Origin: a phage
Sequence record: PZ344858.1
Length of the DNA: 38,561 nucleotides
Strand: one strand, 5' to 3'
Shown here one piece after another: positions 1 to 38,177 of this stretch; position 1 is the stretch's first letter, and each line of letters begins with the position of its first letter. A model generated the notes under the pieces. That model did no database searches, was not told where the DNA came from, and saw only the letters and a program-made list of their open reading frames with translations. Position numbers and translations under genes: made by a program.

Positions 1-150
1 AACAAACTGTTAGACCGCCATAAGTTCCAGATTGGTAAGCTGCAACCTGATGAGCACATCTTGGGTGGCCTTGCTGGTGCTCTGGACGAGTACAAGTCTA
101 AAGTTGGAGATGATGGTCTCACTGACGAGGATATTTACACTTTACAGTGA
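1..150 (+). CDS. 18: Small terminase subunit / DNA maturation protein (T7 gp18-like), C-terminal part; the CDS wraps round from the window end
   Basis: Frame 1 reads NKLLDRHKFQIGKLQPDEHILGGLAGALDEYKSKVGDDGLTDEDIYTLQ then TGA at 148-150; contiguous with the N-terminal part at 38442-38561; matches the T7 gp18 C-terminus as recalled. Confidence 0.85.
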   Translation, partial: NKLLDRHKFQIGKLQPDEHILGGLAGALDEYKSKVGDDGLTDEDIYTLQ

Positions 151-152
151 TA

Positions 153-200
153 TACTCAAGGCCACTACAGATAGTGGTCTTTATGGATGTCATTGTCTAT
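153..200 (+). promoter_or_regulatory. RNase III-type processing hairpin (R18.5-like)
   Basis: Motif ACTCAAGG-stem-loop-stem-CTTTATGGA shared with the other putative RNase III sites in this window; stem ccact/agtgg. Confidence 0.4.
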
Positions 201-244
201 ACGAGATGCTCCTACGTGAAATCTGAAAATTAACGGGAGGCATT

Positions 245-691
245 ATGCTGCAATTTTTACGTAAGCTGGTCCCTTGGGTTCTCGCTGGGATGCTATTCGG
301 ATGGGGATGGCACCTTGGGGCAGACTCAATGGACGCCAAGTGGAAACAGGAGGTACAGAATGAGTACGTTAAGAGAGTTGAGGCTACAGCGAGCACTCAA
401 AGAGCACTCAATGAAATATCGGCTAAGTATCAAGAAGACCTTGCCGCGTTGGAAGGGAGCACTGATAGGATTATTTCTGATTTGCGTAGCGACAATAAGC
501 GGCTGCTCGTCAGAGTCAAAACTACCGGAACCTCCGATGGTAAGTGTGGATTCGAGCCTGATGGTCGAGCCGAACTTGACGACCGAGATGCTAAACGTAT
601 TCTCGCAGTGACCCAAAGGGGTGACGCTTGGATTCGTGCCCTACAGGACACTATACGAGAACTACAGAATAAGCAGGAGGTTAAACAATGA
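245..691 (+). CDS. 18.5: i-spanin (Rz-like, T7 gp18.5 homolog)
   Basis: 148 aa ORF with RBS gggagg upstream; similar in size and sequence to T7 gp18.5; sits between genes 18 and 19. Confidence 0.85.
360..611 (+). CDS. 18.7: o-spanin lipoprotein (Rz1-like, T7 gp18.7 homolog), nested in +1 frame inside 18.5
   Basis: 83 aa starting MSTLRELRL after RBS aggagg; lipobox-like ATISGC; proline-rich C-terminus; start placed by similarity to T7 gp18.7. Confidence 0.75.
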   Translation: MSTLRELRLQRALKEHSMKYRLSIKKTLPRWKGALIGLFLICVATISGCSSESKLPEPPMVSVDSSLMVEPNLTTEMLNVFSQ

Positions 692-2460
692 GGAAAGGTT
701 CATTCGCTCAGTCCAATCGTAATGCGCTCGTTGTAGCGCAACTAAAGGGTGACTTCGTGGCGTTCCTGTTCGTCTTATGGAAGGCGTTAAACCTACCAGT
801 TCCCACTAAGTGTCAAATCGACATGGCTAAGGTACTGGCTAATGGGGATAACAAGAAGTTCATCTTACAGGCTTTCCGTGGTATCGGTAAGTCATTCATT
901 ACATGTGCGTTCGTTGTGTGGTCATTATGGAGGGACCCTCAGTTGAAGATACTTATCGTATCAGCTTCTAAAGAACGTGCAGACGCTAACTCCATATTCA
1001 TCAAGAACATCATTGACCTGCTGCCGTTTCTCAGCGAGTTGAAGCCAAGACCCGGACAGCGTGACTCTGTGATTAGCTTTGATGTTGGTCCTGCTAGTCC
1101 TGACCACTCGCCTAGTGTGAAATCAGTGGGTATCACTGGTCAGCTAACTGGTAGCCGTGCTGATATTATCATTGCGGATGACGTTGAGATTCCGTCTAAC
1201 AGTGCGACTATGGGTGCCCGTGAGAAGCTATGGACTCTGGTTCAGGAGTTCGCTGCGTTACTTAAACCACTACCTACGTCTCGTGTTATCTACCTTGGTA
1301 CTCCTCAGACTGAGATGACTCTCTATAAGGAACTGGAAGATAACCGTGGGTACACCACTATCATCTGGCCTGCTCTATACCCAAGGACTCGTGAGGAGAA
1401 TCTTTACTATGCCCAACGTCTTGCCCCAATGCTCCGTGCGGAGTACGAGGAGAATCCTGAGGCGCTGGCTGGTACTCCTACAGACCCTGTTCGATTCGAC
1501 AGAGACGACCTACGTGAGCGTGAGTTGGAATACGGTAAGGCTGGCTTTACGCTACAGTTCATGCTTAACCCGAACCTGAGTGATGCCGAGAAGTACCCTC
1601 TGAGGCTCCGTGACGCTATCGTAGCGGCCTTAGATTTAGAGAAGGCTCCAATGCATTACCAGTGGCTTCCGAACCGTCAGAACATCATTGAGGACCTTCC
1701 TAACGTGGGTCTTAAGGGTGATGACCTACACACATATCATGAGTGCTCGAATAACTCCGGTCAGTACCAACAGAAGATTCTGGTCATTGACCCTAGTGGT
1801 CGTGGTAAGGATGAAACAGGTTACGCTGTACTGTACACACTCAACGGTTACATCTACCTTATGGAAGCTGGAGGTTTCCGTGATGGTTACTCTGATAAGA
1901 CCCTTGAGCTACTCGCTAAGAAAGCTAAGCAATGGGGAGTCCAGACGGTTGTCTATGAGAGTAACTTCGGTGACGGTATGTTCGGTAAGGTATTCAGTCC
2001 TATCCTCCTTAAACACCACAACTGTGCTATGGAAGAGATTCGTGCTCGTGGTATGAAGGAGATGCGCATTTGTGATACCCTTGAGCCAGTCATGCAGACT
2101 CACCGCCTTGTCATTCGTGATGAGGTCATTCGGGCAGACTACCAGTCCGCTCGTGATGTAGACGGTAAGCATGACGTTAAGTATTCACTGTTCTACCAGA
2201 TGACTCGTATCACTCGTGAGAAAGGCGCTCTGGCACACGATGACCGATTGGATGCCCTTGCGTTAGGCGTTGAGTATCTCCGTGAGTCCATGCAGTTGGA
2301 TTCCGTTAAGGTAGAGGGTGAGGTACTTGCTGACTTCCTTGAGGAACACATGATGCGTCCTACAGTGTCTGCTACCCACATCATTGAGATGTCTGTAGGA
2401 GGAGTTGATGTGTACTCTGAGGACGATGAGGGATACGGTACGTCTTTCATTGAGTGGTGA
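688..2460 (+). CDS. 19: Large terminase subunit / DNA maturation protein B (T7 gp19 homolog)
   Basis: 590 aa ORF, strong RBS aggagg, near-identical in length to T7 gp19 (586 aa as recalled). Confidence 0.95.
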
Positions 2461-2687
2461 TTTATGCAGTAAGATTGCATAGGGATGCACTATAGGCCAC
2501 GGATGGTCAGTTCGTTAAGTTACTGAAAAGACACGAGGGACGAAAGGTTACTATATAGATACTGAATGAATACTTATAGAGTGCATAAAGTATGCATAGT
2601 AGTGTACCTAAAGTGACCTCTAAGAATGGTGATTATATTGTATTAATATCACCTTAACTTAAAGTCCAACATAAAGGGAGGAGACTC

Positions 2688-2837
2688 ATGTTCCGCTTAT
2701 TGTTGAACCTACTGCGGCATAGAGTCACCTACCGATTTCTTGTGGTACTTTGTGCTGCCCTTGGGTACGCATCGCTTAACGGAGACCTCAGTTCACTGGA
2801 GTCTACCGTTTGCTCTTTACTCACTTGTAGTGATTAA
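2688..2837 (+). CDS. 19.5: gp19.5-like small protein
   Basis: 49 aa ORF MFRLLLNLLRHRVTYRFLVVLCAALGYASLNGDLSSLESTVCSLLTCSD, RBS aagggagg; below the ORF-track length cut-off; matches T7 gp19.5 as recalled. Confidence 0.7.
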   Translation: MFRLLLNLLRHRVTYRFLVVLCAALGYASLNGDLSSLESTVCSLLTCSD

Positions 2838-3076
2838 GGTCTTCCTGACCGACTGACGGCTCACCGAGGGATTCAGCGGTATGATTGCATCACACCACTT
2901 CATCCCTATAGAGTCAAGTCCTAAGGTATGCCCATAAAGAGCCTCTAATGGTCTATCCTAAGGTCTATACCTAAAGATAGGCCATCCTATCAGTGTCACC
3001 TAAAGAGAGGCTTAGAGAGGGCCTAAGGAGTCCCTAGAGGGTCCTTTAAAATATACCATAAAAATCTGAGTGACTA

Positions 3077-3221
3077 TCTCACAGTGTACGGACCTAAAGT
3101 TCCCCCATAGGGGTACCTAAAGCCCAGCCAATCACCTAAAGTCAACCTTCGGTTGACCTTGAGGGTTCCCTAGGGGTTGGGATGACCCTTGGGGTTTACC
3201 TTTGAGTGTCTCCTTGTCCCT
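3077..3221. repeat. Terminal repeat (direct terminal redundancy), present once in this circular permutation
   Basis: Begins tctcacagtgtacggacctaaag, the T7 left-end sequence as recalled; bounded by right-end unique sequence upstream and left-end unique sequence downstream; boundaries approximate. Confidence 0.5.
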
Positions 3222-3226
3222 ATCTG

Positions 3227-3360
3227 TTCAGTCTCCTAAAGTATCCTCCTAAAGTCCATCATCAAGCCAACACCAAAAGAATAACCTTAAAGACCCATCA
3301 AGTCAATCCCTATCTTAAAGATAATCCTAACGACCATCCTAACGACCATCCTAAAGCTGC
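3227..3360. repeat. Left-end array of short CCTAAAG/CTTAAAG-type direct repeats, including tandem atcctaacgacc x2
   Basis: cctaaag at about 3234, 3248 and 3350; atcctaacgacc repeated at 3324-3335 and 3336-3347; related copies also in the right end (about 2608, 2968, 2998) and inside the terminal repeat. Confidence 0.5.
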
Positions 3361-3415
3361 CTCGTTGTTACCTATAAAGAGATTATCTTTAATCATTGTC
3401 TTTAATCACTCCCAT

Positions 3416-3438
3416 TAATTCGACTCACTAAAGGGAGA
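3416..3438 (+). promoter_or_regulatory. T7-RNAP-type promoter at the left end (phiOL-like)
   Basis: taattcgactcactaaagggaga; 21/23 match to consensus TAATACGACTCACTATAGGGAGA; predicted +1 G at 3433. Confidence 0.7.
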
Positions 3439-3496
3439 TAAGACTACTTAAAGAGGACCAAAGAGAGAGATTAATCAAAATAATTTTAAAAGAGTA

Positions 3497-3526
3497 TTGA
3501 CTTAAAGGGTCCTACCGGTTTACTAT
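3497..3526 (+). promoter_or_regulatory. Host sigma70-type early promoter (A1-like)
   Basis: -35 ttgact at 3497-3502; -10-like tactat 17-18 bp downstream. Confidence 0.55.
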
Positions 3527-3625
3527 TCATCTCGTCAACGGGACAACGGCCCAAAAGCCACTCCCTGAGATACCGGGGTCAACCGGATAAGTAGACAGCC
3601 TGATAAGTCATACGAAAACCAGGCA

Positions 3626-3655
3626 TTGACAACACGCAGTAACATGCAGTAAGAT
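3626..3655 (+). promoter_or_regulatory. Host sigma70-type early promoter (A2-like)
   Basis: -35 ttgaca at 3626-3631; 18 bp spacer; -10 taagat at 3650-3655. Confidence 0.7.
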
Positions 3656-3731
3656 ACACAGCGTCAACACGGTAGCACAGTGTCTTCTAGGTGACTTAAG
3701 CGCACCACGGCACATAAGGTGAAACAAACGG

Positions 3732-3760
3732 TTGACAACATGCAGTAAACACGGTACGAT
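3732..3760 (+). promoter_or_regulatory. Host sigma70-type early promoter (A3-like)
   Basis: -35 ttgaca at 3732-3737; 17 bp spacer; -10 tacgat at 3755-3760. Confidence 0.7.
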
Positions 3761-3878
3761 GTACCACAAGCAGTAAGGGTGTAGGGATAGGAACCGAGAA
3801 ACCTGCCCGTGACCCGCCAAGGATAAGGCACTAGCCATGAGTCGAATTCGGTCACTCATCGCATAAAAGAATAACAGG

Positions 3879-12182: not shown

Positions 12183-12185
<3 letters not shown>

Positions 12186-12205
12186 TACGACTCACTATAG
12201 GGAAG
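12183..12205 (+). promoter_or_regulatory. T7-type promoter (phi2.5)
   Basis: taatacgactcactatagggaag. Confidence 0.85.
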
Positions 12206-13858: not shown

Positions 13859-14313
13859 TGGCTCGTGTACAGTTTAAACCGCGTGAATCTACTGACGCAA
13901 TCTTTATTCACTGCTCAGCGACTAAACCAAACCAGAACGTAGGTGTCCGCGAGATTCGCCAGTGGCACAAAGAGCAAGGCTGGTTGGATGTGGGATACCA
14001 CTACATCATTAAGCGCGATGGTACTGTAGAGGAAGGCCGAGACGAGATGGCTGTAGGTTCTCACGTTAAGGGCCACAACCACAACTCAATCGGTGTCTGC
14101 CTTGTTGGTGGTATTGACGATAAAGGTAAGTTCGAAGCTAACTTTACGCCAGCCCAGATGCAATCCCTCCGCTCACTGCTTGTCACACTACTGGCTAAGT
14201 ATAAAGGCGCTGTTCTTCGAGCGCATCACGATGTCGCACCTAAGGCTTGCCCTTCGTTCGACCTTAAGCGTTGGTGGGAGAAGAACGAACTTGTCACATC
14301 TGACCGTGGCTAA
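13858..14313 (+). CDS. 3.5: Lysozyme / N-acetylmuramoyl-L-alanine amidase and RNAP inhibitor (T7 gp3.5 homolog)
   Basis: 151 aa, same length as T7 lysozyme; strong similarity. Confidence 0.95.
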   Translation: MARVQFKPRESTDAIFIHCSATKPNQNVGVREIRQWHKEQGWLDVGYHYIIKRDGTVEEGRDEMAVGSHVKGHNHNSIGVCLVGGIDDKGKFEANFTPAQMQSLRSLLVTLLAKYKGAVLRAHHDVAPKACPSFDLKRWWEKNELVTSDRG

Positions 14314-14333
14314 TTGATTGTTCGCATCATTGA

Positions 14334-16107
<1,774 letters not shown>

Positions 16108-21327: not shown

Positions 21328-21365
21328 TAAACTCAAGGTCCAGGGGCCTTTATGATTATTACTTT
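21324..21365 (+). promoter_or_regulatory. RNase III-type processing hairpin (R6.5-like), without an associated T7 promoter
   Basis: gtgataaactcaaggtccaggggcctttatgattattacttt. Confidence 0.5.
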
Positions 21366-22644: not shown

Positions 22645-24261
22645 ATGGCTGAGAAGCGTACAGGTCTAGCCGAGGAAGGTGCTAAGTCGGTCTATGAACG
22701 ATTGAAGAACGACCGTGCCCCGTATGAGACTCGTGCTCAAAACTGCGCTCAGTACACCATTCCGTCCCTCTTCCCTAAGGACTCCGATAACGCATCTACA
22801 GACTACACAACTCCGTGGCAAGCTGTGGGTGCTCGCGGTCTCAATAACTTGGCCTCTAAGCTCATGCTGGCTCTCTTCCCTATGCAAACGTGGATGAAAC
22901 TGACCATCTCTGAGTTTGAGGCCAAACAGTTACTGGATGACCCCGATGGACTCGCTAAGGTTGATGAGGGCCTCTCAATGGTAGAGCGCATCATCATGAA
23001 CTACATTGAGTCTAACAGCTACCGAGTGACTCTCTTCGAGGCTCTCAAGCAGTTAGTCGTTGCTGGCAACGTCCTGCTGTACCTACCGGAACCAGAAGGG
23101 TCGAACTATAATCCCATGAAGCTGTACCGATTGTCTTCTTATGTGGTCCAACGAGACGCATTCGGCAACGTTCTGCAAATGGTGACTCGCGACCAGATAG
23201 CTTTCGGAGCACTCCCTGAGGATGTCCGTAAGGCTGTAGAAGGTCAAGGTGGTGAGAAGAAACCTGATGAGACCATTGATGTGTACACTCACGTCTATCT
23301 GGATGAAGAATCAGGGGAGTATCTCCGCTACGAAGAGGTTGAGGGTATGGAGGTCCAAGGCTCAGACGGGTCTTACCCTAAAGAGGCTTGTCCATACATC
23401 CCGATTCGAATGGTTCGACTCGACGGTGAATCCTACGGTCGTTCGTACATTGAGGAATACTTAGGTGACTTACGGTCCCTTGAGAATCTCCAAGAGGCTA
23501 TCGTCAAGATGTCCATGATTAGCTCTAAGGTTATCGGCTTAGTGAATCCTGCTGGTATCACCCAGCCACGCCGACTGACCAAAGCTCAGACTGGTGACTT
23601 CGTTACTGGTCGTCCAGAAGACATCTCATTCCTACAACTGGAGAAGCAAGCAGACTTTACTGTAGCTAAAGCCGTAAGTGACGCTATTGAGGCTCGCCTT
23701 TCGTTTGCCTTCATGTTGAACTCTGCGGTTCAGCGCACTGGTGAACGTGTGACCGCCGAAGAGATTCGGTACGTTGCGTCAGAACTTGAAGATACTTTAG
23801 GTGGTGTCTACTCTATCCTTTCTCAAGAATTACAATTGCCTCTGGTACGAGTGCTCTTGAAGCAACTACAAGCCACGCAACAGATTCCTGAGTTACCTAA
23901 GGAAGCCGTAGAGCCAACTATTAGTACAGGTCTGGAAGCAATCGGTCGTGGTCAAGACCTTGATAAGCTGGAACGCTGTGTCTCTGCATGGGCTGCTCTG
24001 GCCCCTATGCGCGATGACCCAGACATCAACCTTGCGATGATTAAGTTACGCATTGCTAACGCTATCGGTATTGACACTTCTGGCATCCTTCTTACCGAAG
24101 AGCAGAAGCAACAGAAGATGGCTCAACAGTCTGTTCAAATGGGTATGGATAATGGCGCTGCTGCGCTTGGTCAAGGTATGGCTGCACAGGCTACGGCTTC
24201 ACCTGAGGCTATGGCTGCTGCCGCTGATTCCGTTGGTTTACAGCCGGTCCAGATTGAGTGA
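22645..24261 (+). CDS. 8: Head-to-tail connector (portal) protein (T7 gp8 homolog)
   Basis: 538 aa, RBS aggaggt; follows 7.3 directly with no gene 7.7. Confidence 0.97.
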   Translation: MAEKRTGLAEEGAKSVYERLKNDRAPYETRAQNCAQYTIPSLFPKDSDNASTDYTTPWQAVGARGLNNLASKLMLALFPMQTWMKLTISEFEAKQLLDDPDGLAKVDEGLSMVERIIMNYIESNSYRVTLFEALKQLVVAGNVLLYLPEPEGSNYNPMKLYRLSSYVVQRDAFGNVLQMVTRDQIAFGALPEDVRKAVEGQGGEKKPDETIDVYTHVYLDEESGEYLRYEEVEGMEVQGSDGSYPKEACPYIPIRMVRLDGESYGRSYIEEYLGDLRSLENLQEAIVKMSMISSKVIGLVNPAGITQPRRLTKAQTGDFVTGRPEDISFLQLEKQADFTVAKAVSDAIEARLSFAFMLNSAVQRTGERVTAEEIRYVASELEDTLGGVYSILSQELQLPLVRVLLKQLQATQQIPELPKEAVEPTISTGLEAIGRGQDLDKLERCVSAWAALAPMRDDPDINLAMIKLRIANAIGIDTSGILLTEEQKQQKMAQQSVQMGMDNGAAALGQGMAAQATASPEAMAAAADSVGLQPVQIE

Positions 24262-24329
24262 GGTCTGGTCTCAAGGTTCGAGTCCTTGGGTGTCCCTTAG
24301 TTCTTTAAATTGGAATGGAGATAACAATA

Positions 24330-25253
24330 ATGGCTGAATCTAATGCTGATGTATATGCGTCCTTCGGCGTAAACTCCGCTGTGATGTCTGGTGGTTCCGT
24401 TGAGGAACACGAGCAGAATATGCTGGCTCTGGATGTTGCTGCCCGTGATGGCGATGATGCAATCGAGTTAGCGTCCGACGAAGATGAAACTGAACGTGAC
24501 CTGTATGACAACTCTGACCCGTTCGGTCAAGAGGACGATGAGGGCCGTATTCAGGTTCGCATTGGTGATGGTTCTGAGCCGACTGATGTGGACACTGGGG
24601 AAGAAGGTTTTGATGGCACAGAAGGTTCCGAAGAGTTTACCCCACTGGGTGAGACTCCAGAAGAACTGGTAGCTGCCTCTGAGCAACTTGGTGAGCACGA
24701 AGAGGGCTTCCAAGAGATGATTAACATTGCTGCCGAGCGTGGCATGAGTGCTGAGACCATTGAGGCAATCCAGCGTGAGTACGAGGAGAACGAAGAGCTA
24801 TCCGCTGCATCCTACGCTAAGCTGGCTGAAATTGGTTACACTAAGGCTTTCATCGACTCATACATCCGTGGTCAAGAAGCTCTGGTGGAGCAGTACGTAA
24901 ACAGTGTAGTTGAGTATGCTGGCGGTCGTGAGCGTTTTGATGCGCTGTACAATCACCTTGAGACTCACAACCCTGAGGCTGCACAATCGCTGGACAATGC
25001 GCTGACCAATCGCGACTTAGCGACCGTTAAGGCTATCATTAACTTGGCTGGCGAGTCTCGTGCTAAGGCGTTCGGTCGTAAGCCCACTCGTAGTGTAACC
25101 AGTCGAGCTATTCCGGCTAAACCTCAAGCGACTAAGCGTGAAGGCTTTGCTGACCGTAGCGAGATGATTAAGGCTATGAGTGACCCTCGGTATCGCACCG
25201 ATGCAAACTATCGTCGTCAAGTCGAACAGAAAGTGATCGACTCTAACTTCTGA
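24330..25253 (+). CDS. 9: Capsid assembly (scaffolding) protein (T7 gp9 homolog)
   Basis: 307 aa from MAESNADVYASFGV with RBS ggag 9 nt upstream; highly acidic; ORF-track start at 24315 has no RBS. Confidence 0.9.
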   Translation: MAESNADVYASFGVNSAVMSGGSVEEHEQNMLALDVAARDGDDAIELASDEDETERDLYDNSDPFGQEDDEGRIQVRIGDGSEPTDVDTGEEGFDGTEGSEEFTPLGETPEELVAASEQLGEHEEGFQEMINIAAERGMSAETIEAIQREYEENEELSAASYAKLAEIGYTKAFIDSYIRGQEALVEQYVNSVVEYAGGRERFDALYNHLETHNPEAAQSLDNALTNRDLATVKAIINLAGESRAKAFGRKPTRSVTSRAIPAKPQATKREGFADRSEMIKAMSDPRYRTDANYRRQVEQKVIDSNF

Positions 25254-25256
25254 TAG

Positions 25257-25526
25257 ACTCTCGCTGGCACCTCTCGCTCGGATGCTACCGGTCAGAAGCA
25301 CGCCTTCCCGGCTACTAAGAGCGGTACTGACAAGGTTGCTAAGGACAACGTTATCGGCCTGTTCATGCACCGCTCTGCGGTAGGTACTGTTAAGCTGCGT
25401 GACTTGGCTCTGGAACGTGCTCGCCGTGCTAACTTCCAAGCGGACCAGATTATCGCGAAGTACGCAATGGGCCACGGTGGTCTGCGTCCAGAAGCTGCTG
25501 GTGCTGTGGTTTTCACGGCAGCGTAA
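25257..25526 (+). pseudogene. 10: Remnant of the major capsid protein gene (3' end of T7 gene 10A homolog), without start codon, RBS or promoter
   Basis: In-frame translation ...TGQKHAFPATKSGTDKVAKDNVIGLFMHRSAVGTVKLRDLALERARRANFQADQIIAKYAMGHGGLRPEAAGAVVFTAA* matches the C-terminal part of T7 gp10A as recalled; preceded by TGA TAG. Confidence 0.8.
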
Positions 25527-25637
25527 TGCTGAAAGTGGCCTCAACGGTCGCTGCTAGTCCCGAAGAGGTGAGCATTACTACCGAAGAGAGTCTAACTCCA
25601 GCACAGAAAGCTGCACGCACACGCGCGCTCATACGAT

Positions 25638-26213
25638 ATGAACGTTGAGACTGCCGCTGAGTTATCCGCTGTGAACGACATTCTGGCATCTATCGGTGAA
25701 CCTCCGGTATCAACGCTGGAAGGTGACGCTAACGCAGATGTAGCGAACGCTCGGCGCATTCTCAATAAGATTAACCGACAGATTCAGTCTCGTGGCTGGA
25801 CGTTCAACATTGAGGAAGGCATAACGCTATTACCTGATGTTTACTCCAACCTGATTGTGTACAGCGATGACTATTTGTCACTAATGGCTACTTCCGGTCA
25901 ATCAGTCTATGTTAATCGAGGTGGCTATGTGTATGACCGAACGAGTCAATCTGACCGCTTTGAGTCTGGTATCACTGTTAACATTATCCGTCTACGAGAC
26001 TACGATGAGATGCCTGAGTGCTTCCGATACTGGATTGTCACTAAGGCTTCCCGTCAGTTCAACAACCGATTCTTTGGGGCACCAGAAGTAGAGGGTGTAC
26101 TACAAGAAGAGGAGGATGAGGCTCGACGTCTCTGTATGGAGTACGAAGTGGATTATGGCGGTTATAACATGCTGGATGGTGACGCGTTCACTTCTGGTCT
26201 ACTGACTCGCTAA
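25638..26213 (+). CDS. 11: Tail tubular protein A (T7 gp11 homolog), starting at an internal methionine relative to T7
   Basis: 191 aa [23 protein letters not shown]...; T7 gp11 begins MRSYDMNVE as recalled; no Shine-Dalgarno sequence upstream here. Confidence 0.85.
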
Positions 26214-26233: not shown

Positions 26234-28621
26234 ATGGCACTCATTAGCCAATCAATTAAGAACTTGAAGGGTGGTATCAGTCAACAGCCTGACATCCTTC
26301 GTTATCCAGACCAAGGGTCACGCCAAGTTAACGGTTGGTCTTCGGAGACCGAGGGCCTCCAAAAGCGTCCACCAATGGTTTTCCTTAAGACACTTGGAGA
26401 CAACGGTGCTCTAGGTCAAGCTCCGTACATCCACCTGATTAACCGTGATGAGAACGAACAGTATTACGCTGTGTTCACTGGTACAGGAATCCGAGTGTTT
26501 GACCTTGCCGGTAACGAAAAACAGGTACGATACCCAACAGATGGTGCTTCGTACATCACCACTTCAAACCCAAGGAACGACTTGAGGATGGTAACTGTGG
26601 CTGACTATACGTTCATCGTTAACAGAAACGTAAGGGTAGCACGTAATGCCAACTCTGTCAACCTTCCTGGGTTTAACCCTAAGAAAGATGCGTTAATCAA
26701 CGTTCGTGGTGGTCAGTACGGTAGAACCCTCCAGATTCAGATTAATGGGGGCACTCAGGCCAGCTATCAGATTCCAGATGGTTCACAACCCGCACACGTA
26801 AACAATACGGACGCTCAGTGGTTAGCTGAGGAGCTGGCCAGACAACTAAGGGCAAACACTCCCGGATGGACATTCAACGTGGGTCAAGGCTTTATCCACA
26901 TCATAGCAGATGCTGCCGGTGAGATTAACTCTTTGGTTACTAAGGATGGTTATGCAGACCAGTTGATTAACCCTGTAACACACTACGCCCAGTCATTCTC
27001 CAAGCTGCCACCTAACGCACCTGATGGGTACATGGTGAAAATCGTAGGAGATGCCTCAAAGTCCGCTGACCAATATTACGTTCGCTATGACGCACAGCGT
27101 AAGGTCTGGGTTGAGACACTAGGTTGGAACGTCACGAACCAACTTCTGTACGAGACTATGCCGCACGCGCTGGTTCGCGCTTCTGATGGTAACTTTGAGT
27201 TCAGGTGGCTTGAGTGGGTTCCAAAGACATGCGGTGACGATGATACCAACCCGTGGCCTTCCTTCATGGACTCCACAATCAACGATGTGTTCTTCTTCCG
27301 TAACCGTTTAGGTTTCCTAAGTGGAGAGAATATCATCTTGAGTAGAACCGCTAAATACTTCAACTTCTACCCAGCGTCAATCGCGAACTTGAGTGATGAT
27401 GATCCTATTGATGTGGCTGTAAGTACCAACAGAATAGCAATCCTTAAGTATGCCGTGCCATTCTCTGAGGAGTTGCTCATCTGGTCCGATGAAGCGCAGT
27501 TCGTCCTGACTGCTTCCGGTACTCTCACGTCGAAGTCAGTTGAGTTGAACCTAACGACTCAGTTTGATGTGCAGGACCGAGCGAGGCCGTTCGGGATTGG
27601 TCGTAACGTTTACTTTGCGAGTCCGAGGTCCAGCTTTACGTCCATCCATCGGTATTACGCCGTTCAGGATGTAAGTTCCGTTAAGAACGCTGAGGACATT
27701 ACGGCTCACGTTCCGAACTATATACCTAATGGTGTGTACAGTATCTGCGGGTCGGGTACTGAGAACTTCTGTTCGGTACTATCCCATGGGGACCCTAGCA
27801 AAATCTTCATGTACAAATTCCTGTACCTTAACGAAGAGTTGAGGCAACAGTCGTGGTCTCACTGGGACTTTGGGGAAAACGTGCAGGTTTTGGCATGTCA
27901 GAGCATCAACTCAGATATGTTCATCATTCTACGTAACGAGTTTAACACGTTCCTTGCAAGAGTTTCCTTTACGAAGAACGCCATTGACTTACAGGGAGAA
28001 CCTTATCGGGCCTTTATGGACATGAAGATTCGCTACACGATTCCAAGCGGAACGTATAACGATGATACCTATGAGACGTCCATCCATATTCCAACTATTT
28101 ATGGTGCAAACTTCGGGAGGGGCAAAATCACTGTACTTGAACCTGATGGTAAGATCACAGTGTTTGAGCAACCTCAGGCTGGCTGGAGTAGTGACCCTTG
28201 GCTGAGACTCAATGGTAACTTAGAGGGACGCATGGTGTACATCGGGTTCAACATCAACTTCGTCTATGAGTTCTCTAAGTTCCTCATCAAACAAACTGCC
28301 GACGATGGGTCTACCTCCACGGAAGACATTGGTCGCTTGCAGTTACGCCGAGCGTGGGTGAACTATGAGAACTCTGGGACGTTCGACATTTATGTTGAGA
28401 ACCAATCGTCCAGCTGGAAGTACACAATGGCTGGTGCCCGACTAGGCTCTAGCACCCTGAGGGCCGGTAGACTGAACTTAGGGACCGGACAATACCGATT
28501 CCCTGTGGTGGGCAACGCCAAGTTCAATACCGTGTCCATCTTGTCCGATGAGACTACCCCGTTGAACATCATTGGTTGTGGCTGGGAAGGTAACTACTTA
28601 CGGAGAAGTTCCGGTATTTAA
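26234..28621 (+). CDS. 12: Tail tubular protein B (T7 gp12 homolog)
   Basis: 795 aa, RBS aaggagg. Confidence 0.95.
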   Translation: MALISQSIKNLKGGISQQPDILRYPDQGSRQVNGWSSETEGLQKRPPMVFLKTLGDNGALGQAPYIHLINRDENEQYYAVFTGTGIRVFDLAGNEKQVRYPTDGASYITTSNPRNDLRMVTVADYTFIVNRNVRVARNANSVNLPGFNPKKDALINVRGGQYGRTLQIQINGGTQASYQIPDGSQPAHVNNTDAQWLAEELARQLRANTPGWTFNVGQGFIHIIADAAGEINSLVTKDGYADQLINPVTHYAQSFSKLPPNAPDGYMVKIVGDASKSADQYYVRYDAQRKVWVETLGWNVTNQLLYETMPHALVRASDGNFEFRWLEWVPKTCGDDDTNPWPSFMDSTINDVFFFRNRLGFLSGENIILSRTAKYFNFYPASIANLSDDDPIDVAVSTNRIAILKYAVPFSEELLIWSDEAQFVLTASGTLTSKSVELNLTTQFDVQDRARPFGIGRNVYFASPRSSFTSIHRYYAVQDVSSVKNAEDITAHVPNYIPNGVYSICGSGTENFCSVLSHGDPSKIFMYKFLYLNEELRQQSWSHWDFGENVQVLACQSINSDMFIILRNEFNTFLARVSFTKNAIDLQGEPYRAFMDMKIRYTIPSGTYNDDTYETSIHIPTIYGANFGRGKITVLEPDGKITVFEQPQAGWSSDPWLRLNGNLEGRMVYIGFNINFVYEFSKFLIKQTADDGSTSTEDIGRLQLRRAWVNYENSGTFDIYVENQSSSWKYTMAGARLGSSTLRAGRLNLGTGQYRFPVVGNAKFNTVSILSDETTPLNIIGCGWEGNYLRRSSGI

Positions 28622-28671
28622 TACATAATGTTCTCCCTGTGGTGTCAATACGACTACGGGAGGGTTTTCTT

Positions 28672-34900: not shown

Positions 34901-35933
34901 TCGCTCTCCGTGGACTAAGCTGCTTAATGGAACCACTAACTACCTTCTGGATGCTGCGCGTCAAGGTATGCTTGGGGACGTGATTAGTGCCACCCTAACA
35001 GGTAAGACTACCCGCTGGGAGAAAGAAGGATTCCTTCGGGGTGCCTCAATAACCCCTGAGCAGATGCAGGGAATCAAGGCACTCATTAAGGAACACATGG
35101 TGCGTGGTGAAGATGGTAAGTATACCGTTAAGGATAAGCACGCGTTCTCTATGGACCCAAGAGCTATGGACTTGTGGCGACTGGCTGATAAGGTAGCTGA
35201 CGAGGCAATGCTGCGTCCGCATAAGGTGTCCTTACAGGATTCACATGCGTTCGGAGCATTAGGCAAGATGGTGATGCAGTTTAAGTCTTTCACCATTAAA
35301 TCCCTTAACTCTAAGTTTCTGCGAACCTTCTACGATGGGTACAAGAACAACCGAGCGATTGACGCTGCGCTGACTGGTATCATCTCTATGGGTCTCGCTG
35401 GTGGTTACTACGCTATGGCTGCACACGTCAAAGCGTATGGAATGCCTAAGGAGAAACGTAAAGAATACTTGGAGCGTGCATTGGACCCAACCATGATTGC
35501 CCACGCGTCGTTATCTCGTAGTTCTCAATTAGGTGCTCCTTTGGCTATGGCTGACCTAGTTGGTGGCCTGTTCGGGGTTGAGTCCTCAAAGATGGCTCGC
35601 TCTACTATTCTTCCTAAAGACACCATGAGGGAGCGTGACCCTAATAAGCCTTATACCTCGTGGGAGGTAATGGGTAATATGGGTTCCAACATTCTTGAAC
35701 AGATGCCTTCGGCTGGATTTGTGGCTAACGTTGGGGCTTCCCTACTTAATACTGCTGGCGTGGTGAATGCTCCTAACAAAGCCACTGAGCAGGACTTCAT
35801 GACTGGTCTCATGAACTCCACAAAAGAGTTAGTACCGAACGACCCATTGACGCAACAGCTTGTGTTGAAGATTTATGAGGCGAATGGTGTTAACTTGAGG
35901 GAGCGTCGGAACGAAAGAATCTTCTCCCTGTAG
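31959..35933 (+). CDS. 16: Internal virion (core) protein D with N-terminal lytic transglycosylase domain (T7 gp16 homolog)
   Basis: 1324 aa; N-terminal SLT-like motif ESRFQPTAKSKTGPLGMMQF; RBS aaggagg. Confidence 0.95.
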   Translation: MDKYDKNVPSEYDGLFQKAADANGVSYDLLRKVAWTESRFQPTAKSKTGPLGMMQFTKATAKAMGLRVTDGPYDDRLNPELAINAAAKHLAGLVGKFDGDELKAALAYNQGEGRLGNPQLEAYSKGDFSSISEEGRNYLRNLLDVAKSPMSGQLEAFGGITPKGKGIPADVGLAGIGHKQKVTQELPESTSFDVKGIEQEATAKPFAKDFWETHGETLDEYNSRSTFFGFKNTAEAELSNSVAGMAFRAGRLDNGFDVFKDTITPTRWNSHIWTPEELEKIRTEVKNPAYINVVTGGSPENLDELIKLANENFEVDLRKSEAGLGAQLSAGIIGAGVDPLSYVPMVGVTGKGFKLINKALVVGAESAALNVASEGLRTSVAGGDSDYAGAALGGFVFGAGMSAISDAIAAGLKRGKPEAEFDNEFIGPMMRMEARETARNANSADLSRINTENMKFEGEYKGVPYEELPTEKGAVVLHDGSILSASNPINPKTLKEFSEVDPEKAARGIKLAGFTEIGLKTLGSDDADIRRVAIDLVRSPTGMQSGSSGKYGSTASDIFEKLRGTDQRTYNDLYKAMSDAMKDPEFSTGGAKMSREEARYTIERRVALAIENPELQKALTPNERIVMDIVKRHYDTKRELMENPAVFGNTKAVSIFPESRHKGTYVPHVYDKYAKALKIQRYGAEGLQEGIARSWMCSYDLRPSVKARIDEALKEMHGVEEVTHDMVYKYAMDKAYGISHSDRFTNSSIIEENIEGLVGIENNSFLEARNLFDSDLAITMPDGEQFSVNDLRDFSMFRIMPAYDRRINGDIAIMGSTGKTTKELKDEILALKAKAEGDGKKTGEVHALMDTVKILTGRARRNQDTVWETSLRSINDLGFFAKNAYMGAQNLTEIAGMIATGNVRALGHGIPILRDTLYRSKPVSAKELKELHASLFGKEVDQLIRPQRADIVQRLREATDTGPVVANIVGTLKYSTQELAARSPWTKLLNGTTNYLLDAARQGMLGDVISATLTGKTTRWEKEGFLRGASITPEQMQGIKALIKEHMVRGEDGKYTVKDKHAFSMDPRAMDLWRLADKVADEAMLRPHKVSLQDSHAFGALGKMVMQFKSFTIKSLNSKFLRTFYDGYKNNRAIDAALTGIISMGLAGGYYAMAAHVKAYGMPKEKRKEYLERALDPTMIAHASLSRSSQLGAPLAMADLVGGLFGVESSKMARSTILPKDTMRERDPNKPYTSWEVMGNMGSNILEQMPSAGFVANVGASLLNTAGVVNAPNKATEQDFMTGLMNSTKELVPNDPLTQQLVLKIYEANGVNLRERRNERIFSL

Positions 35934-35960: not shown

Positions 35961-37637
35961 ATGGCTAACGTAATTAAAACCGTTTTGACTTACCCGTTAG
36001 ATGGCTCCAATCGTGATTTTAATATTCCGTTTGAGTATCTGGCCCGTAAGTTCGTAGTGGTAACTCTTATTGGTGTTGACCGCAAGGTCCTTACGCTCAA
36101 TACAGATTATCGCTTTGCTACGCGCACTACTATCTCGCTGACCAAATCTTGGGGTCCTGCTGATGGCTACACGACCATCGAGTTGCGCCGAGTAACCTCC
36201 ACGACCGACCGATTGGTTGACTTTACGGACGGCTCAATCCTGCGTGCGTATGACCTTAACGTAGCGCAGATTCAGACTATGCATGTGGCAGAAGAGGCCC
36301 GTGACTTAACTGCGGATACCATTGGTGTCAACAATGATGGTCACTTGGATGCCCGTGGTCGTCGTATCGTGAACCTAGCGAACGCTGTGGATGACCGTGA
36401 TGCCGTTCCATTTGGTCAACTTAAGACCATGAACCAGAACTCATGGCAAGCGCGTAATGAAGCCTTACAGTTCCGTAATGAGGCTGAGACTTTCAGAAAC
36501 CAAGCGGAGGGCTTTAAGAACGAGTCCAGCACTAACGCTACGAATACCAATCAGTGGCGTAATGAGGCTAAGGGGTTCCGTGATGAGGCCGAACAGTTCA
36601 AGAACACTGCGGCACAACAGGCTACCGCTGCTAGTAACTCTGCGGCTGCTGCTCACCAATCCGAGGTGAACGCTGCGAACTCCGCTACTGCATCCGCTAA
36701 CTCTGCCCAGTCGGCAGAACAGCAAGCAGACCGTGCGGAGCGTGAAGCAGACAAGTTGGGTAACTGGAATGCACTTGCAGAGGCCATTGAGGAAGTAAGT
36801 CCTGACCATGTGGTCACGTGGGCGGCTACTGCTAAGTTTAACGGTGAACTTATTGCTAAACGTTCTTCAACCCTGAATGCAACTGCCGAAGCTGGCTCTA
36901 TGGGGCAGATGGTACATGAATATGACCCGACTGCCGGGCGGTACACCTCAAATACATTTTGGGCTATCAAACACCCACATCAAGATGGATGGCACGTTCC
37001 CTTTCAGGTTCAAAGTAAACCTAATGATTCTGCTACATGGGAGATGCACTTCGGGGACTTCATGCATTGCTACAATGGCTTGCAGGTCGAAGGGTTCAAC
37101 AAACCGCTAGGTGTTACTAATCAGGCTAATACTGCCGTTAAGACGGTGGCACATGGTCCGGGTGATTTAGCCCAAGGCTCATGGGTATGTAACACCAGAT
37201 GGAGTTTCTACGACGCAGGGTTAGAAATTGGATGGGTTCGTGGTGGCTCTTCGAATGGCAACGGCCTACTCAGGTGGAAACCGGAAGCATCTCAAGCGAC
37301 GTATCATGACATTTGGCTAAACCCAGGTGGCGAGGTACAATTCCCATCCACGATTAAGGCAGGTGCTGCAACATATGCCGTTGATGGAAACATTGCCGGA
37401 ACTGTATGGGGCGGTTCTGGTCATCTTTACGGGTGGCTTAGAGAAAACACAGTCAACCACATTGCGATGGGTGGAGTTAACTGGGCGCAACTGTGGAGGG
37501 CTGGCGGTGTTGATGATGGTGGCGGTAAGGTCATAACAGGTATTTTAAACACGAACGCCGATGACACGGTAGATGGCTGCCAGTGGCGTGTTATGCAATA
37601 TGTACGCAACGATGGTCAACGCTTCAATATTTACTAA
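35961..37637 (+). CDS. 17: Tail fibre protein (T7 gp17-like N-terminal half, divergent C-terminal receptor-binding half)
   Basis: 558 aa; residues 1 to about 265 near-identical to T7 gp17 as recalled; remainder unrelated to the T7 tip. Confidence 0.95.
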   Translation: MANVIKTVLTYPLDGSNRDFNIPFEYLARKFVVVTLIGVDRKVLTLNTDYRFATRTTISLTKSWGPADGYTTIELRRVTSTTDRLVDFTDGSILRAYDLNVAQIQTMHVAEEARDLTADTIGVNNDGHLDARGRRIVNLANAVDDRDAVPFGQLKTMNQNSWQARNEALQFRNEAETFRNQAEGFKNESSTNATNTNQWRNEAKGFRDEAEQFKNTAAQQATAASNSAAAAHQSEVNAANSATASANSAQSAEQQADRAEREADKLGNWNALAEAIEEVSPDHVVTWAATAKFNGELIAKRSSTLNATAEAGSMGQMVHEYDPTAGRYTSNTFWAIKHPHQDGWHVPFQVQSKPNDSATWEMHFGDFMHCYNGLQVEGFNKPLGVTNQANTAVKTVAHGPGDLAQGSWVCNTRWSFYDAGLEIGWVRGGSSNGNGLLRWKPEASQATYHDIWLNPGGEVQFPSTIKAGAATYAVDGNIAGTVWGGSGHLYGWLRENTVNHIAMGGVNWAQLWRAGGVDDGGGKVITGILNTNADDTVDGCQWRVMQYVRNDGQRFNIY

Positions 37638-37649
37638 AGGAGATACACT

Positions 37650-38177
37650 ATGAAGACTTTACGTCACTATAAGAACTTCGTAAACTATATCCCAGAACGC
37701 ACCAAAGAGAATGCAGACCTTCTGGACCACGGAGTTGGCTTCTCAAAGGACGAGAATGGGAATGACTGGTATGAACTACGTGAGACATTCCGTGAGGATA
37801 CGTGGAAACTTGTCTATGCTAAAGATGGTTCGGTTATCCAGTGTGAACAGGATGTTCAGGAGTTAGCCGTGCAGGGTTCTGCTGGGGTAGTTGAACTTGA
37901 GGAAATCCCTGCTGAATACTCTCGTTACAATATGATGCAGTGGTGGTGGGACGGTGAGAAGCTCACTTGGTATCCGAGATACTTTGAGAACCAGAAGGCT
38001 CGTCTACTCTCTATGGCCTCCAAGAAGATTGAGCAGTATGCTGACTTTATGGCGCTTGGGGAGGAGGGATTAGAGGGTCTACTAAATGCGTGGCGAATCT
38101 ATCGACTTGCTGTGTATAAAGTGGACCTAAGTGTTCTACCTTTTTACGATTGGCCTGAGAAGCCTGAGGACTTATAA
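37650..38177 (+). CDS. Tail fibre assembly protein / chaperone (lambda Tfa-like)
   Basis: 175 aa with RBS aaaggag; C-terminal NAWRIYRLAVYKVDLSVLPFYDWPEKPE resembles lambda Tfa [27 protein letters not shown]; located immediately 3' of the tail-fibre gene. Confidence 0.8.
   Translation: MKTLRHYKNFVNYIPERTKENADLLDHGVGFSKDENGNDWYELRETFREDTWKLVYAKDGSVIQCEQDVQELAVQGSAGVVELEEIPAEYSRYNMMQWWWDGEKLTWYPRYFENQKARLLSMASKKIEQYADFMALGEEGLEGLLNAWRIYRLAVYKVDLSVLPFYDWPEKPEDL

Follow-up and report, generated by a model that had tools for sequence, protein, structure and literature searches.

Probable removal of vector-like sequence as the origin of the missing gene 11 start in a T7-like phage record

In the phage record PZ344858.1, gene 11, encoding tail tubular protein A, is found without a translation start of its own, which raises the question of whether the phage or only its record lacks this region. 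The window analyzed here is the whole stretch of 38,561 nucleotides. The missing gene 11 start is almost certainly the result of an in silico excision following a vector-contamination screen and not a feature of the real phage.

Gene 11 and the two large cuts upstream

The elements of the locus, all on the + strand and given in positions of the window, are as follows.

24330–25253, +: gene 9 (scaffolding protein), intact; forms the left border of cut 1, which lies seven to eight nucleotides past its stop
25254–25271, +: cut site 1, junction between 25261 and 25262, TAGACTCT joined to CGCTGGCACC (alignment to T7 and 13a)
25263–25526, +: remnant of gene 10A (major capsid protein), last 87 codons and stop (25524–25526)
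25526–25624, +: remnant of the 10B frameshift tail, truncated at cut 2; corresponds to the 13a feature "similar to C-terminal tail of gp10B"
25613–25637, +: cut site 2, junction between 25624 and 25625 (2-nt ambiguity), gcacgcacacgc joined to gcgctcatacgat (alignment to T7 and 13a)
25625–26213, +: gene 11, lacking only the first two bases of the start codon (alignment to T7 gp11)

The first ATG left in gene 11, at 25638, corresponds to Met6 of T7 gp11. The protein read from there has 191 amino acids compared with 196 in T7, and 186 of the 191 (97%) are identical to T7 residues 6–196. T7 residues 2–5 (RSYD) are encoded in frame upstream of this ATG; the frame reads A-R-S-Y-D-M-N-V-E in the record and M-R-S-Y-D-M-N-V-E in T7. 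Homology to T7 gp11 is thus full length, and the loss of the native ATG claimed in the earlier note, with GCG in its place, is evident from this comparison. The gene lies between gene 10/Tphi and gene 12, with the gene 10 remnant upstream and the gene 12 homologue starting at 26234. No start codon behind a Shine–Dalgarno sequence GGAGG belongs to it: the 25 nucleotides upstream of the ATG (gcacgcacacgcgcgctcatacgat) contain no GGAG-like or Shine–Dalgarno motif, in agreement with the same note. A search for terminators on the + strand between 25100 and 25800 yielded none. On the minus strand, a terminator-like hairpin was called at 25613–25628, which is created by the GC-rich artificial junction and has no likely significance.

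Upstream of gene 11, the frame of the 10B tail (ORF 25526–25648) continues directly into the gene. T7, 13a, pO111, EG1, and approximately 250 other records have about 120 extra nucleotides at this point, including the terminator, GGAGGAACTAT, and the ATG, which speaks against mere chance variation. The alignment with T7 and 13a also corroborated the third observation made from the letters, namely that the 10B tail is fused to codon 2 of gene 11 and that the terminator and the initiation region are gone.

Two blocks are absent in comparison with T7. At cut 1, the equivalent of T7 22882–23736 is missing (approximately 860 nucleotides in 13a), which contains promoter phi10, the gene 10 leader and ribosome-binding site (RBS), and gene 10 codons 1–257. 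At cut 2, the equivalent of T7 24106–24229 is missing, which contains the final 17 codons of the 10B tail with their stop, Tphi, the Shine–Dalgarno sequence of gene 11, and the first two bases (AT) of its ATG. Between the cuts, 363 nucleotides are kept, which comprise the 3′ end of gene 10 and some of the 10B tail. The joined flanks share a microhomology of 0 to 2 nucleotides. Gene 11 is without Shine–Dalgarno sequence and ATG because the equivalent of T7 24106–24229 was excised, and not as a result of evolution. The 40-amino-acid ORF at 25526–25648 is, judged from the alignment, an artefact of the join.

The Teseptimavirus relatives T7 (NC_001604), 13a (EU734174), pO111 (OR204652), and EG1 (MG488277) have the same gene order 8-9-10-11-12. 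Their nucleotide identity to the flanks is 92% to 95%, and the end of 10A and the 10B frameshift tail are recognizable in the record. In contrast to the record, these intact relatives possess phi10, gene 10 codons 1–257, the end of the 10B tail, Tphi, and the RBS and start of gene 11. A relocation of the capsid gene within the record was considered and rejected: neither an ORF of approximately 345 amino acids nor other gene 10 homology was detected outside 25262–25526. The ORFs of 359 and 362 amino acids sit at the positions expected for T7 genes 0.7 and 1.3, the kinase and the ligase of the T7 map.

The deletions might be physically real if the record described a defective, helper-dependent, or engineered T7-like phage that is maintained by a helper phage or by complementation from a plasmid; we regard this as very improbable. 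The record is contiguous with zero Ns, as would be expected of such a phage, and its layout is common to three records. Under this reading, gene 11 would be expressed poorly or via coupling to the ORF of the 10B remnant (stop 25646–25648), a consequence to which we likewise give very little credence. The 40-amino-acid ORF ends 8 nucleotides past the ATG at 25638, and termination–reinitiation would formally be possible. Against physical deletions stands the loss of gp10A and all late promoters, which is lethal according to established T7 genetics. Neither a viable remainder nor signatures of recombination at the flanks were found.

Correspondence of the missing blocks with T7 DNA in cloning vectors

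A comparison of T7 22800–24300 with PLSDB retrieved small plasmids of the pET type, one of them named pET3xa-barn36. As determined by local blastn, NC_025174 (pET3xa-barn36), CP080650, and CP130428 carry T7 24106–24229 (124 bp) with 100% identity. In the pET plasmids, this Tphi fragment is flanked by the linkers ggatccg and ccggat, and the T7 DNA begins at T7 22881, after the linker gatcccg. Base for base, block 2 equals the pET Tphi fragment, and even one additional T (24229), a chance match to the linker, is part of it. On its left side, block 1 begins one base inside the vector fragment; at T7 22880–22881, the record has the 13a-like CT instead of the TC of T7. The right edge of block 1 (23736) lies 10 nucleotides short of where gene 10 codon 260 ends (T7 23746, KpnI site GGTACC), and the record mismatches T7 in those 10 nucleotides (C for T at 23737 and 23743). 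Since the edges of block 1 adjoin mismatches to T7, a local alignment to the vector would end exactly there.

The first 260 codons of gene 10 are presumably also present in pET-3x, pET-17xb, and pGEMEX. For pSCREEN-1b(+), it has been stated that the initial 260 residues of T7 gene 10 are encoded (PMC2095791), and the right edge of block 1 is supported by this statement together with the simulation described below. With the query T7 22800–24300, no vector with the gene 10 codon-260 junction was detected in PLSDB or in E. coli genomes; the plasmids retrieved were all of the pET type and lacked the 260-codon leader. In metagenome contigs, the pattern GGTGGTGCTGGTACC-N(0-30)-GCTGCTAACAAAGCCCGAAAGG gave 0 matches. 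The pattern CGCTGGTGGTGCTGGTACCNNV gave 30 matches in genome contigs and 19 in metagenome contigs, all of them chance matches without T7 homology.

Taken edge by edge, the missing blocks equal the T7 fragments of pET/pSCREEN-type vectors base for base at three of the four edges, and the fourth ends 10 nucleotides inside the fragment, at two mismatches. In contrast to these vectors, the record is without any vector backbone; homologues of vector-borne DNA were removed from the phage genome, which is different from vector contamination. Gene 11 is an ordinary T7-type gene, and the locus is an ordinary gene 10–Tphi–gene 11 region minus the parts shared with vectors. The earlier note had expected severely reduced gp11 expression unless translational coupling occurs or the locus is engineered. 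This expectation was not supported, since the missing block is the T7 fragment of pET and one of seven cuts of the vector type. Translational coupling and alternative initiation for the ATG at 25638 were set aside as moot, the junction being artificial.

Recombination with a pET plasmid in the host was rejected as a source of the gaps. A double crossover would swap gene 10 for the insert; it could not delete two separate vector-homologous blocks while sparing the non-vector piece between them, and five distant promoters would not be removed.

Promoter cuts and simulated vector screen

Base-level alignments of the promoter sites with 13a, T7, EG1, pO111, and the sibling phage vB_Yep_9 revealed five further cuts on the + strand.

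2528–2541, +: phiOR cut, junction between 2534 and 2535 (2-nt ambiguity); 31 nucleotides missing, GATAAATTAATACGACTCACTATAGGGAGAG in T7
21335–21348, +: phi6.5 cut, junction between 21341 and 21342; 30 nucleotides missing, CTAAATTAATACGACTCACTATAGGGAGAT in 13a
24240–24255, +: phi9 cut, junction between 24247 and 24248; approximately 31 nucleotides missing, GGAATTTAATACGACTCACTATAGGGAGACCA in EG1
28639–28652, +: phi13 cut, junction at approximately 28644–28646; 32 nucleotides missing, TCGAAATTAATACGACTCACTATAGGGAGAAC in 13a
35905–35918, +: phi17 cut, junction between 35911 and 35912; 26 nucleotides missing, ATAATACGACTCACTATAGGGAGAGG in 13a

The phi9 gap was measured against EG1, which has the same downstream sequence as the record. 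All six consensus class III promoters (phiOR, phi6.5, phi9, phi10, phi13, and phi17) are absent, whereas the degenerate class II promoters are kept; the four T7-promoter-like sites left in the record are all degenerate, and none matches the consensus. A genome-wide scan against 13a showed no further clean deletion of at least 12 nucleotides in well-aligned regions, the only exceptions being short indels in the repeat-rich genome end. As read in 13a, the phi17 and phi6.5 gaps are 3 nucleotides longer than the match to the pET-based model, a surplus that we ascribe to further vectors in the database used for screening or to differences in the phage's own sequence. Taken together, the seven cuts have removed nothing but T7 DNA that vectors carry.

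The phi9 and phi17 cuts also took the native stop codons of genes 8 and 16, which overlap these promoters. The C-terminus of gp8 (gene 8 end 24240–24261) now reads ...GLQPVQIE* and the protein has 538 instead of 536 amino acids. Without its stop, the gene 16 ORF extends to 35933 by six extra codons, giving a gp16 of 1324 instead of 1318 amino acids.

A vector screen was simulated with a model composed of pET linkers, T7 22881–23746, and T7 24106–24229, using blastn with VecScreen-like scoring (+1/−5, gap costs 3/3). The matches, in T7 coordinates, were as follows.

pO111 (closest intact relative around the junctions): gene 10 match 22882–23736; terminator match 24106–24212
13a: gene 10 match 22882–23746; terminator match 24106–24229
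Record: gene 10 match none; terminator match none
vB_Yep_9: gene 10 match none; terminator match none

On intact relatives, the simulation reproduced all four edges of the two large gaps of the record, those of block 1 with pO111 and those of block 2 with 13a. The longest exact run of the vector model surviving in the record is 21 nucleotides (12183–12203). In 13a, the vector runs outside gene 10 and Tphi measure 23, 26, 27, and 29 nucleotides and correspond to phi17, phi9, phi6.5, and phi13, respectively; all four are cut in the record. One further 23-nucleotide run in 13a, just after phi3.8, falls in the gene 3.8 region, which is absent from the record. The internal threshold of VecScreen is presumably about 23. 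T7-like DNA that does not occur in vectors was retained in spite of considerable scores against T7 under the same VecScreen-like scoring (gene 10 3′ part 154, gene 9 492, gene 11 368). This retention indicates that the rule behind the seven gaps is likeness to vector-borne T7 DNA and not likeness to T7. The footprint of a vector-screen excision is therefore present in three respects: the edges coincide with vector DNA, no match above the threshold is left, and non-vector DNA is kept.

The same results weigh against physically real deletions. Each of the seven cuts falls on T7 DNA that vectors carry and on nothing else, the edges follow likeness to the vector and not homology between the flanks, which is limited to the 0 to 2 nucleotides mentioned above, and a length threshold between 21 and 23 nucleotides has no biological rationale.

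A different origin of the cuts would be an artefact before assembly, in which reads or k-mers matching vectors were discarded and the assembler bridged the holes. Read-level decontamination against UniVec is common practice, and it would target exactly the vector-like segments. However, discarding entire reads would open gaps larger than the match and would not give base-exact joins; base-exact edges are hardest to reconcile with this for the promoter cuts of 26 to 32 nucleotides inside unique sequence. Flanks that share 0 to 2 nucleotides give an assembler no overlap, and neither Ns nor scaffolding gaps are present. A read-level artefact is accordingly very improbable.

Sibling records, proposed course of events, and further features of the genome

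Among the approximately 250 matching phage records, only vB_Yep_9 (PV596790) and vB_Yep_15 (PV596791) run from gene 9 to gene 11 with no capsid gene in between. They have adjacent accessions, come from the same submitter and from wastewater in China, and are described as sewage isolates on Yersinia enterocolitica, a description that speaks against real deletions. Both are T7-like and, like the record, lack phi9, the 5′ part of gene 10, and the Tphi block, and neither contains any remaining vector match. In vB_Yep_9, phi13 is missing as well, as in the record, with which it aligns in one piece over both junctions at 94.9% identity. The relatives proposed as a test in the earlier note were aligned, and none has the same junction as the record, but this outcome is not decisive for the interpretation. 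The 32-nucleotide junction of the record gave 0 matches in IMG/VR.

The edges of the sibling cuts differ slightly from those of the record. In vB_Yep_9, block 1 has its left edge 1 nucleotide away from that of the record (TAGGCTT joined to CGCTGG) because a T7-like TC is present there. In both siblings, the terminator cut ends approximately 20 nucleotides earlier than in the record, and the RBS and ATG of gene 11 are kept; block 2 of vB_Yep_9, ending 20 nucleotides earlier, leaves TTTAATGGGAGGAACTATATG in place. The sibling terminator cuts end where TTTAATGGGAGG and TTAATGGGAGG depart from the GCTGAAAGGAGG of the vector, and that of vB_Yep_15 starts exactly at T7 24106. The nearest sibling, vB_Yep_9, thus keeps the gene 11 RBS and ATG only where its own sequence departs from the vector. 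Edges that shift with the local likeness of each genome to the vector argue for alignment-driven editing and not for recombination.

In vB_Yep_9, neither a major capsid protein nor gp11 is annotated, although the ATG and RBS of gene 11 are present. In vB_Yep_15, 242 nucleotides without T7 similarity (1585–1826) lie between the end of gene 9 and the kept 3′ part of gene 10; this segment could be a divergent or inserted piece of the capsid region that escaped excision. A literature search on the vB_Yep phages and on VecScreen score thresholds returned nothing usable.

The three records could also be taken as a family of capsid-less T7-like genomes, helper-dependent, satellite-like, or defective interfering, that occurred in mixed lysates, with the coincidence with vectors being accidental. 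We consider such a family extremely improbable. By established T7 biology, a phage that has neither the major capsid gene nor a class III promoter could not form plaques.

We infer the act of excision from its footprint in the sequence; the vector screen may have been run by the submitter or within a pipeline. The starting point would be a normal T7-like phage (Teseptimavirus) genome. Since cloning vectors carry T7 DNA, a comparison of the UniVec/VecScreen or FCS type would flag the homologous parts of close T7 relatives. The pieces that vectors carry are phi10 and the leader of gene 10, beginning at T7 22881, codons 1 to 260 of gene 10, ending at T7 23746, Tphi on T7 24106–24229, and the 23-nucleotide consensus T7 promoter. 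The flagged spans would then have been deleted and the flanks joined. The pET Tphi fragment reaches the A of the gene 11 ATG, plus one base by chance identity with the linker, so that the cut took the RBS and "AT" and left the G behind GC. VecScreen reports matches only and deletes nothing; human or scripted removal therefore has to be assumed. In the real phage, gene 10 and Tphi would be intact, and gene 11 would start normally (GGAGGAACTATATGCGC...).

With the excision as the preferred reading, the locus has no biological significance for gene 11 expression and represents no new biological feature; its value lies in curation. Because common vectors were built from T7 parts, T7-like genomes easily attract false vector flags. 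Deleting the flagged spans gives rise to "complete genomes" without the capsid gene, the late terminator, and the late promoters, and with altered gp8 and gp16 C-termini. Such records mislead annotation, pangenome, and promoter analyses. Side effects of the cuts are the spurious 40-amino-acid ORF and a 53-amino-acid "virion structural protein" call as annotated in vB_Yep_9. At least two GenBank records with the same footprint (PV596790 and PV596791) could be corrected.

Other features of the genome were noted in passing. The record is circularly permuted and has the terminal repeat only once: from a start within the gene 18 region, it continues through 18.5, 19, the terminal repeat, and the early region (1–3768), and matches to both ends of 13a overlap at 3077–3215. 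This permutation is typical of a circular contig of an assembler that was never re-oriented. Between genes 3.5 and 4 (14313–14349), gene 3.8 is absent and only a 35-nucleotide spacer is found; the gene is present in 13a and T7. Its absence looks like natural variation rather than a cut. Downstream of gene 17 (35961–37637), an ORF of 175 amino acids (37650–38177, + strand) matches the tail fibre assembly family phrog_136 (E = 1e-38), and a gene of this type is absent from T7 and 13a. Between approximately 36790 and 38166, nucleotide similarity to 13a is absent from the record, and the tail fibre's C-terminal third together with the putative chaperone looks like a swapped receptor-binding module.
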